Of a stretch of 64,000 bases of DNA, positions 18,001-21,000 are shown piece after piece. How positions within the stretch are numbered: position 1 is the stretch's first letter; each line of letters begins with the position of its first letter. The DNA comes from Escherichia coli O157:H7. Its GTDB lineage: Bacteria; Pseudomonadota; Gammaproteobacteria; Enterobacterales; Enterobacteriaceae. A program made the position numbers. The stretch lies in the NCBI RefSeq assembly GCF_013167455.1, contig NZ_CP038328.1. One strand, 5' to 3'.

Positions 18001-21000
18001 CAACCACCATGTTGCCAAGCTGGAATTTGCCAAACTCAATGCCGCGCGGCGCATCTGCCGGACGCGGGGTGAACATCTGCCATTCGCCGTTAAAGTCTTC
18101 ATCGATAAACGGGCTGGCGGCGCGGAAGTCGACCACTTCCGTTCCGTGTTTCGGTGCACCGAAACGCACGCGGATCTTCACTTCATTGGCTAAAATCGCC
18201 CGATCTTCATACTCAACCAGCGCAGCAACGCGCGGTGCTGTGGCTACTAACTTTTTCATGTAAAACTCCTTGTAAAGAAACTGGCCGCTTTAGCCCTTCA
18301 CGCCACCGGCGGTCAAACCACTCTTAATAAAACGTTCCGAAAGCGCATACATAATCACCACCGGCAATGCGGTCACCAGCGAGGCCGCCATCATCCGTCC
18401 CCAGATGTAATCTGGCGTACTGAACAGCGCGTTCAGGCCGACTGGTAAGGTGAAATTGCTGGCGCTGGAGAGGAAAATCGACGCAAACAGATAGTCGTTC
18501 CATGCCACCATAAAGCAGTAGACGAATACGGATATCAGCCCGGACATCGCCAGGGGCACGGTGATACGGAAGATAATTTGCAGACGGTTGAGGCCATCCA
18601 TCATCGCCGCTTCTTCGATCTCATCAGGGATGGTGTCGAAGTAACTTTTCAGCATAAACACGGCGGTGGGCAGAGTTTGCGTCACCATGGTAATGATCAG
18701 CGCCATCTCGGTGTCGTAAATGCCAAGTGCGGTGATAATTTTGAACAGCGGCACCACCAGCAAAATGCCGGAGAACATATACACCGTGTAAAAGCTGGCG
18801 TTGATGGTCATCCGGCCTTTAAAGCGCAGGCGAGAAAGCGCGTAAGCTCCGAGAATGCCGAGAAATACCGCCACCACGGATGAAACCACCGACACCACCA
18901 TGCTGTTACGGAAGTAGTCGACAAACGGGAAAATCACCGGGTTAAAAATGTCGACATAATGCTCCAGCGTCCACTGTTGCGGCAGCAGCGTAGGATGCAG
19001 CGAGATCGCCTCTTTTGCGCTCTTGAACGAGGTCATCAGCATCACAAAAAACGGAAACAGCGTGATGATGAGAAACAGCGCCAGCCCGCGGTAAAAACCG
19101 ATACGACTGAGTGTGCGTTTATTTGTTGCCATTGAGGTTCACCCGTTTCCTGGTCAGCAGAATGACAGCGAAAATAATGATGAAGAGCACCACCGAGATC
19201 GCCGCCGCTTTCCCTAAGTCATTAAAGGCAAAGGCGGTTTTGTAGAGATAGACACCAAGAATATCGACCTTGGTTGTCAGCAGATAAACATCCGCGAACA
19301 TGTAGAACATCCAGATGGTGCGAAGGGTCACCACCGTCGCCAGGACCGGCATAATCGCGGGCAGCGTGACGATACGAAACCGTTGCCAGGCATTAGCGCC
19401 ATCCATCTCTGCCGCTTCGTACAGCGATTTGTCGATGGTCTGCAAAATCGCCAGAAACGAGATAAAGGCATACGGGAAGTAGCGCCAGATGGCGAAGATC
19501 ACCACCAGCACAAAACTACTGCCCGGATTATCGAACCACAGCGGTGCCTGCTCATAAAGATGCAGAAGATCGACGCCGAGGTAGTTCACAATGCCGTAGC
19601 CGTTGTTGAACATGTATTTCCAGGCGAACACCAGCGAAATAGACGGCGTTACGTAGGAGAGGATCACCAGCGAACGCGCGGTTTTGCGCAGGCGGAACTC
19701 GCGGTTGAAAAACATCGCCACTGCCAGCCCGAGCACGGTGCTGCCCGCCACCACCAACGCGTGTAACCAGGTGAATCATTTGATACCGACAAGGGTTTTA
19801 GTGAAAGGAGGTGAAATCACCTGTAAGATGCTGAAATAAAACAGGTGATGTATACTTCGGACGGAAAACTCTTTTTGATACCGACTGCTCAACAAATAGT
19901 CAAAAGATCAAAAAACGGCGACACATTTGATACTGCTAATTTACCCTTAAAATCTTCTTCAAAACATCTTCAAACTGCCAAAATGCTCACATAATCGATC
20001 TAACTATAATCAGTATGATAATCATCATGAATTACTATTCAATAGCGTGATTATCTTGGGATGAGTCATATGATCTCTATATGTATTTACAGCACCACCT
20101 CATGATAGCGATGGCGCTTAACCAACAACATTTTTCTTTACTGTCACTGCCCCTGATTCCTGGGTGGCGTTATTGCTCGAGTTGTACTTCTCAATAACGC
20201 GCAAAATCTCTTTGTCTGTTTCTTCACTTCCCGCCATTCCTATCTTTATTGCATTTTTTAGTACGGGACGTAATGGCAAGGCATCAATGATGCTTTCTAC
20301 CGCATCCTGGCTGATTGTAGATGTATTCATTGCTGCCAGCCTGACAAGGTTGTTAGTACCTTCTCGCCTGATGAATGTAAGGATTAATTGCTTCTCTTGG
20401 GGGCTTAGAGAGCTAAGCGCCTGATCAATACCCGAACCTGAATCGCAATTGTTTTCGATTTTTCCGCATTCATCTTCGTTCTTGCCTGTGGCCAACCATT
20501 CGAGTGAACAATTACAGGCTTTAGCTATTAAGGCCAGTTTATCCAAAGGAGGGAAGTTTTTCCCCTTCCTGTAATTTCTTACTGTGGCTTCAGATAGTCC
20601 ACAAAGGGTCGCCAGTTCGACGTTTGTCATGTTTCCCATAGCCATAGCTAAGCGTTCTGAAAATCGGTTTATTCCTTCCATATCAATAAACCGTTCCGCA
20701 CTGGATACGGTTTTTTCTGCCTTATCCATATAACCCCCTATAAAACAAAGAAATTATCAACATCGCATTTAATTTCGATGTGCTCGCAAAAAACCGTTGA
20801 TATCGAATTATTTTGCGATTATGATTTACCTAAATCGATAACCGGTTTTGATTATCGGTTCAGGTAAACATGAGAGGATCACACAATGAGGGTATCCAGA
20901 CAAGCATCGAATAATTTGTTTGTTCGAGAGGGGTGTGACTGGTCTGCTAAAGCGGTATATGCAGCCCTTGAAAACAAAGGCACAGACCTCCCTGAACTGG

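Follow-up and report, generated by a model that had tools for sequence, protein, structure and literature searches.

Can a Mu-like prophage that has settled in a host operon place the genes beyond its left end under its own immunity promoter? The question is raised by a stretch of 64,000 nucleotides from Escherichia coli O157:H7 (contig NZ_CP038328.1), referred to here in its entirety as the window, in which a prophage of this kind lies within the permease gene ycjO. A first-pass annotation had proposed that transcripts from the repressor promoter cross the left end of the prophage (attL), rendering the truncated ycjO and the genes from ycjP through ycjV and ompG constitutive and removing them from the control of YcjW. 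The analysis presented here points to a plainer reading, namely that the locus is an ordinary prophage insertion, probably polar, in a decaying operon. Read-out into the ycj genes is possible and likely weak, amounting at most to a low-level leak-through.

The prophage and its two boundaries in ycjO

That a Mu-like prophage interrupts ycjO is borne out by its gene content. A MuA-type transposase gene (21163-23253, plus strand; PHROG 310, E=1e-209) follows a gene for a ner-like early regulator (20886-21152, plus strand; PHROG 769, E=2.5e-28), and both point away from a repressor gene that lies at the left end, which is the arrangement that marks Mu-like phages. The last intact prophage gene is com (57647-57847, plus strand; PHROG 13819, E=5e-13), whose product is assigned to the Com family in relatives. 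Over positions 21329-57851, the prophage and Sp18 of the Sakai strain share 97-99% identity.

The left end could be fixed by comparing ten copies of the element, which occur in glrR, yghD, bglJ, ycjV, cho, melA, betT, a DUF5682 gene, siiEA and the window itself. All ten share the same first base and start with TGTAACCAGG; in the alignment their first bases are identical (TGTAACCAGGTGAATCATTTGATACCGAC) and the DNA to the left is unrelated, showing a fixed terminal sequence inserted at essentially random sites (ten copies, ten host sites). A megablast search of 5,426 complete E. coli genomes with positions 19100-20800 gave the same picture: thousands of genomes matched the query, which fell into two distinct segments, and the prophage segment always started at query positions 660-663, or window positions 19759-19762. 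Together, the copies and the search place the left end at 19762, ten bases to the left of the earlier estimate of about 19772. The 3' part of ycjO does adjoin the prophage at this point, as had been recognized, the junction falling within the interval first singled out (19119-19790), and the remnant (19119-19761, minus strand, from the ORF list and the junction alignment) comprises 213 codons plus the stop. A search of a phage collection with the left-end DNA returned only two Stx-phage records with inserted Mu-like elements, in which the first 175 nt matched.

On the opposite side, the first nine codons of ycjO were indeed found where they had been reported (57852/3-57879, minus strand, by junction alignment, with the ATG at 57879-57877), but the two pieces of the gene fall 211 bp short of the whole. 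The missing segment became evident from a three-way comparison of the window with an intact prophage (strain 2010C-3347) and an intact ycjO (O157:H7 strain PA20), relative to which roughly codons 10-80 are gone. The match of the prophage to its relatives ends at 57851, within the com/mom overlap and at the start of mom, and the intact copy of 2010C-3347 carries 817 bp more, consisting of mom and the right end (…CGCGCTATACA). At the junction, 57851-57852, the beginning of mom runs directly into codon 9/10 of ycjO, with a microhomology of a single T. By this comparison, one deletion took 817 bp of the prophage, including most of mom and attR, together with 211 bp of ycjO. This right-end deletion, with the approximately 70 ycjO codons that it includes, had been missed in the first-pass annotation. 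Since attR is lost, the prophage is one-ended and unable to transpose. The right junction, where a 5-bp target-site duplication would be sought, went with the deletion. The deletion of attR also accounts for the window having no inverted transposase repeats at its two prophage ends: the right-end sites are absent, and a motif scan of the window found no inverted TTTGATACYG near 57.8 kb. The element descends from a Mu-like family of the Sp18 type, of which it is no longer a complete member.

It is conceivable that the junction at 57851/57852 is an artefact of assembly and that both the prophage and ycjO are truly intact on that side, and neither junction of the window was found in any of the 5,426 complete RefSeq E. 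coli genomes. This explanation is nevertheless highly improbable. The flanks are collinear and correctly oriented pieces of one and the same gene, and they match O157:H7 strain PA20 with 0 mismatches in 8,762 bp on the left (11000-19761, a segment that starts with the last 276 bp of ompG) and 1 mismatch in 4,789 bp on the right. If the join were an error, there would be little reason for it to fall back into the very same gene at a distance of 211 bp, and the deletion of one end of a Mu-like element is a simple and plausible event.

The control region and the left-end spacer

The repressor gene (20118-20729, minus strand) encodes a protein of 203 aa with a CI-type helix-turn-helix (PHROG 3037 'transcriptional repressor', E=3e-59; Pfam domains Phage_CI_repr and HTH_3) and has a strong Shine-Dalgarno sequence (-10.2 kcal/mol). 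As first described, it is transcribed leftward toward the left end, on the same strand as ycjO and ycjP. In sequence the protein does not resemble Mu c (BLASTP E=2.2), and it is not of the Mu c type.

Promoters were sought in the divergent control region between the repressor and ner-like genes (20730-20885) by a position-weight scan, whose background was set by the top score of each 200-nt stretch in the window (99th percentile, 10.96). On the plus strand, a strong early promoter (TTGATA-17-TATGAT, 20797-20825) reached 13.6, above the 99th percentile. The minus-strand scan for σ70 promoters upstream of the repressor found none above background, its best score being 7.1 vs a window median of 6.7. 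As this best match is about what any 200-nt stretch would be expected to offer, we infer that the repressor promoter is intrinsically weak or atypical. The repressor promoter of Mu is likewise weak or atypical. Of course, some leftward transcription must exist, since a stable lysogen needs its repressor.

The repressor stop is separated from the host by attL with a non-coding spacer (19762-20117 on the plus strand, starting TGTAACCAGG), which on the minus strand forms the 3' untranslated region of the repressor transcript. Its length is 356 nt and not the roughly 345 originally given; the accompanying claim that it has no hairpin/T-run terminator stands, on the evidence of two independent scans. 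A simple consensus scan of the minus strand from 20118 to 19762 and on to 18900 detected no terminator-like site, and a hairpin and T-tail scan of the d'Aubenton-Carafa type gave no positive score on the minus strand between 18900 and 20200 (best d=-15.6). When the latter scan was applied to the whole window, the pspE terminator (61077->61062), serving as positive control, scored d=44, and further terminators were detected at 56461->56433 (d=28) and 23287->23264 (d=30); none was found on the minus strand below 23264. The left end of Mu (positions 1-900, minus strand) has no predicted terminator in the same kind of scan either, so that this lack is a trait of the architecture and not peculiar to the present copy.

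What the spacer does contain are the presumed transposase-binding sites of the left end. The motif TTTGATACYG has 4 matches in the window vs 0.29 expected, and three of them stand in direct orientation at the left end: putative repeats L1 (TTTGATACCG, 19779-19788), L2 (TTTGATACCG, 19874-19883) and L3 (TTTGATACTG, 19926-19935), all on the plus strand. In the relative from strain 2010C-3347, whose right end is intact, the motif is found there in inverted orientation, and L2 and L3 also emerge from comparison with Sakai Sp18, in which L2 is conserved. A 9-bp inverted repeat (ATCACCTGT / ACAGGTGAT) with arms 16 nt apart occupies 19816-19849 and is conserved in the heteroimmune Sp18 left end. As a possible terminator it was discarded, since a T-run is absent on both strands (d=-40).

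Other functions for the spacer were looked for and not found. RefSeq annotation of relatives places no gene there, an Rfam search of 18800-21300 gave no match, and the predicted folding of the spacer RNA is about as stable as that of shuffled controls (z=-0.28). The ten spacer copies are almost identical, which precluded covariation analysis.

The ycj operon and the fate of leftward transcripts

The operon that received the prophage was degenerate already. In PA20, ycjN is interrupted by a stop and ycjM by a frameshift, and the same split ORFs occur in the window; ycjM and ycjN were thus pseudogenes in this O157:H7 lineage before the insertion. With ycjN and ycjM broken, the transporter was without its binding protein, and the pathway without its phosphorylase, before the phage arrived. 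Downstream of the insertion the genes are in better order: ycjP (18290-19132) is followed on the minus strand by ycjQ, ycjR and the remaining operon, with full-length ORFs from ycjP through ompG in the ORF list, and the regulator gene ycjW (9261-10259) is a full-length ORF of 332 aa. In the O157:H7 strain Z570, a prophage of the same type lies in ycjV in the opposite orientation, and this independent insertion is consistent with a ycj locus under relaxed selection that tolerates insertions.

Control by YcjW is an essential consideration for any read-out. An identical YcjW operator (14-15 bp) occurs upstream of ycjM, where its first copy lies at 60896-60910, and between ycjT and ycjU, where the second copy of the same 15-mer (ATGGGACCGCTACCA, 13092-13106, minus strand) precedes the ycjU/pgmB start by 17-31 nt. 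This is the arrangement expected of the YcjW regulon, and in K-12 the two strongest YcjW ChIP-seq peaks were found at these two places (PMC6599011). Because of the second operator, a YcjW site would still precede ycjU-ycjV-ompG, and at most ycjP-ycjT could escape.

Any leftward transcript would also have to traverse a considerable length of RNA that is essentially untranslated, about 985 nt, beginning at the stop codon of the repressor (20118) and continuing until ycjP starts (19132). Between 20117 and 19133 no credible translation start or ribosome-binding site was found, the best-looking Shine-Dalgarno sequences having energies of -2.7 to -6.0 kcal/mol. The ycjO remnant has no start codon of its own and no usable ribosome-binding site: TTG/GTG starts near 19757/19754 have Shine-Dalgarno energies of just -2.7 kcal/mol, and direct reading of the sequence shows that the frame is closed just upstream by a TGA in the phage end. 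The start of ycjP, in turn, is overlapped by the stop of the remnant. Rho classically acts on long stretches of untranslated RNA in which C is abundant and G scarce. Using base composition as a heuristic, windows of this kind are seen in the transcript at 19871-19768 (C/G 2.1) and at 19715-19638 (C/G 1.5), and together with the untranslated stretch they would favour Rho-dependent polarity. Mu insertions are known from classical genetics to be strongly polar.

The explanation that best fits these observations, and that we hold to be probable, is a plain polar insertion in a decaying operon, with leak-through transcripts that are few and mostly ended by Rho. An Sp18-type Mu-like phage transposed into ycjO at about codon 80, and a later deletion took its right end (mom and attR) along with 211 bp of ycjO. 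What is left is a one-ended prophage that is immobile but still has its repressor. The 38 kb prophage would sever transcription from the ycjM promoter from the genes downstream, polar inactivation being the most likely outcome. At the left, the 356-nt stretch would serve as the transposase-binding end (L1-L3), free of any intrinsic terminator. Leftward transcripts past attL would probably be few, since the repressor promoter looks weak, and most of those that cross would probably be ended by Rho in the untranslated RNA, roughly 1 kb long, that precedes ycjP. For their part, ycjU-ycjV-ompG keep their own YcjW operator. No meaningful effect on expression would be expected. As a point against this explanation, no sequence feature positively halts RNA polymerase, and the argument for Rho is one of composition and untranslated RNA.

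Read-out from the repressor promoter, as originally proposed, has its precondition in the anatomy. The repressor shares the operon's orientation, no intrinsic terminator occurs on the minus strand from 20118 to beyond ycjP, the ORFs from ycjP to ompG are full-length in a left flank identical to that of other O157:H7 strains, and ycjP has its own Shine-Dalgarno sequence of moderate strength (-7.4 kcal/mol), so that a transcript arriving there could be translated. The model is nonetheless unlikely, in view of the missing recognizable σ70 promoter upstream of the repressor, the approximately 985 nt of untranslated RNA with its rut-like composition, and the YcjW operator before ycjU that would limit any escape to ycjP-ycjT. 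The transporter is dead in any event, with ycjN a pseudogene and ycjO broken. Nor do insertions elsewhere betray an orientation bias: the repressor is co-oriented with the interrupted host gene in three of the nine other copies, a small sample in which no preference was seen.

Outward transcription could conceivably arise within the left-end spacer itself, much as in insertion sequences, and drive ycjP onward. Two minus-strand promoter-like sequences at or near the 99th percentile lend some support to this idea: TTGAAT-16-TATCAT (20042->20015), which scored 11.5 and was also picked up by a consensus scan, and TTGACT-17-TATCAA (19903->19875), which at 10.5 falls just under 10.96. Both outscore anything upstream of the repressor. 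The spacer, however, is AT-rich, and the region's 4 consensus matches compare with 3.6 ± 2.1 in dinucleotide-preserving shuffles; the match at 19903->19875 overlaps L2 and may merely reflect the transposase motif; and the objections from Rho and the YcjW operator hold equally. Promoters in the spacer are thus a rather doubtful source of ycjP transcription. By whichever promoter, it would be quite improbable for the grounded prophage to act as a constitutive promoter cassette for ycjP-ycjT, and possibly ompG, independent of the YcjW-controlled ycjM promoter.

Since the lineage had a degenerate operon to begin with, little is at stake biologically. What the locus does document is a strain-specific, one-ended ('grounded') prophage of the Sp18 type and, for O157:H7, one more stage in ycj operon decay. 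These features should be of use in strain typing and in the annotation of prophage boundaries, and the biology is unsurprising. If read-out were real and substantial, a Mu-like prophage would here have rewired host catabolic genes to its immunity circuit.

Comparison with known systems

The architecture of the left end is shared with phage Mu, in which the repressor is also transcribed toward the left end, the ner and A genes are divergent, and about 270-340 nt of non-coding DNA with three transposase sites separate the repressor stop from the end. In contrast to the prophage described here, the c repressor of Mu is not of the CI-type helix-turn-helix kind, and there is little DNA similarity between the two. 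A literature search on where the Mu repressor transcript ends, on Mu polarity or read-out and on the cog/ompG-psp fusion yielded nothing useful. For a B3-like transposable phage, RNA-seq has revealed a lysogenic transcript of about 1.9 kb that reaches past the repressor gene, in a report that leaves the host flanks unmentioned (PMC9936078).

Read-out from mobile elements into neighbouring genes has been described, for example, for insertion sequences with outward promoters and for cassettes derived from Tn5 (PMC6755753, PMC11894529). The concept is shared: a mobile element that carries no terminator at its end can switch on the host genes beyond it. In those cases, both the outward promoter and the expression downstream were reportedly measured, whereas the prophage in ycjO offers promoter-like matches, which are weak evidence.

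A precedent closer to home comes from the same chromosomal neighbourhood. In 1998, Fajardo et al. reportedly found that the cog deletion fuses the silent ompG gene to the psp promoter and thereby activates it. As would be the case with read-out in the window, a rearrangement there puts ycj/ompG genes under a foreign upstream promoter. The two differ in that the cog fusion was produced by deletion and demonstrated experimentally, whereas the present case is a prophage insertion.

A close relative is Sp18 of O157:H7 Sakai, which is inserted in sorM and has been reported to be intact and packaged (PMC2669165). Between a point inside the transposase gene and com it has at least 97% DNA identity with the window's prophage, the outermost ~95 nt at its left end are nearly identical, and its L1-L3 motifs are the same. 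The two differ in their insertion sites and in their leftmost ~1.5 kb, where Sp18 carries a heteroimmune module with a repressor of 176 aa vs the 203-aa CI-type protein of the window, and the window copy is without mom and attR. The geometry is nevertheless the same in Sp18, with the repressor co-oriented with the 3' part of sorM and with the next gene, sorE. A constitutive promoter cassette, if true of the ycj locus, would extend to Sp18 and to sorM'-sorE in Sakai, and the shared geometry makes the idea of read-out directly testable in a well-studied strain.

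Loss of the prophage right end

A single deletion at 57851/57852 has removed both the right end of the Mu-like prophage and the adjoining part of ycjO. Comparison with an intact copy of the same prophage type (L001, strain 2010C-3347) and with the intact ycjO of O157:H7 PA20 (L002) showed that the missing DNA comprises 817 bp of prophage, including most of mom together with attR (counterpart L001 3354-4170), and 211 bp of ycjO (counterpart L002 8763-8973). As a result of this deletion, the prophage in the window is one-ended and immobile, and it retains its repressor and lysis genes.

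A strong intrinsic terminator (d=28) is predicted on the minus strand at 56461-56433, 1.4 kb inward of the truncated end. It would halt transcription that starts at the ycjM promoter and now enters com (57647-57847, plus strand) in the antisense direction. Also close to the right end is a leftward-transcribed hypothetical gene, the homologue of Sakai ECs_4996 (57068-57532, minus strand), which is split by a frameshift into two ORFs of 97 aa and 56 aa; the homologue in strain 2010C-3347 is frameshift-split likewise.

Decay of the ycj operon

In the minus-strand region at 57900-60947 (L002 9022-12006), ycjN is a pseudogene with an internal stop and ycjM is a pseudogene with a frameshift. Both are identical to their PA20 versions, indicating that decay of the ycj operon was already under way in the lineage. 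The same phage type is also found in ycjV of O157:H7 Z570 (positions 1380-1502 of L007, a locus from NZ_CP062771.1), in the opposite orientation, and this is a second, independent insertion into the operon. Two identical copies of a putative operator for the regulator YcjW (ATGGGACCGCTACCA, minus strand) occur in the window, one upstream of ycjM (60896-60910) and the other directly upstream of ycjU/pgmB (13092-13106).

Repeats and promoter-like sequences at the left end

The motif CAGGTGA occurs three times in direct and once in inverted orientation within the terminal 90 bp (19766-19849), where its copies make up a 9-bp inverted repeat (19816-19824/19841-19849); the motif may be part of end recognition. 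Further inward, the attL spacer carries two outward-facing, minus-strand σ70-like promoter matches scoring at or near the window's 99th percentile, one at 20042-20015 and the other at 19903-19875, the latter overlapping the putative transposase site L2. An 11-bp tandem duplication in the spacer (TCTTCAAAACA) is present in four of the ten aligned left ends (alignment A1, columns 207-217) and absent from the window copy, where it would fall between 19957 and 19958.

Relation to Sakai Sp18

Sp18, the Mu-like prophage of Sakai, keeps the CAGGTGA arrangement of this left end and is 97-99% identical to the window prophage except in the leftmost ~1.5 kb. There, at 19762-21328, the two differ in their immunity modules, that of the window copy including a CI-type repressor. 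The window prophage is thus a heteroimmune mosaic relative of Sp18.
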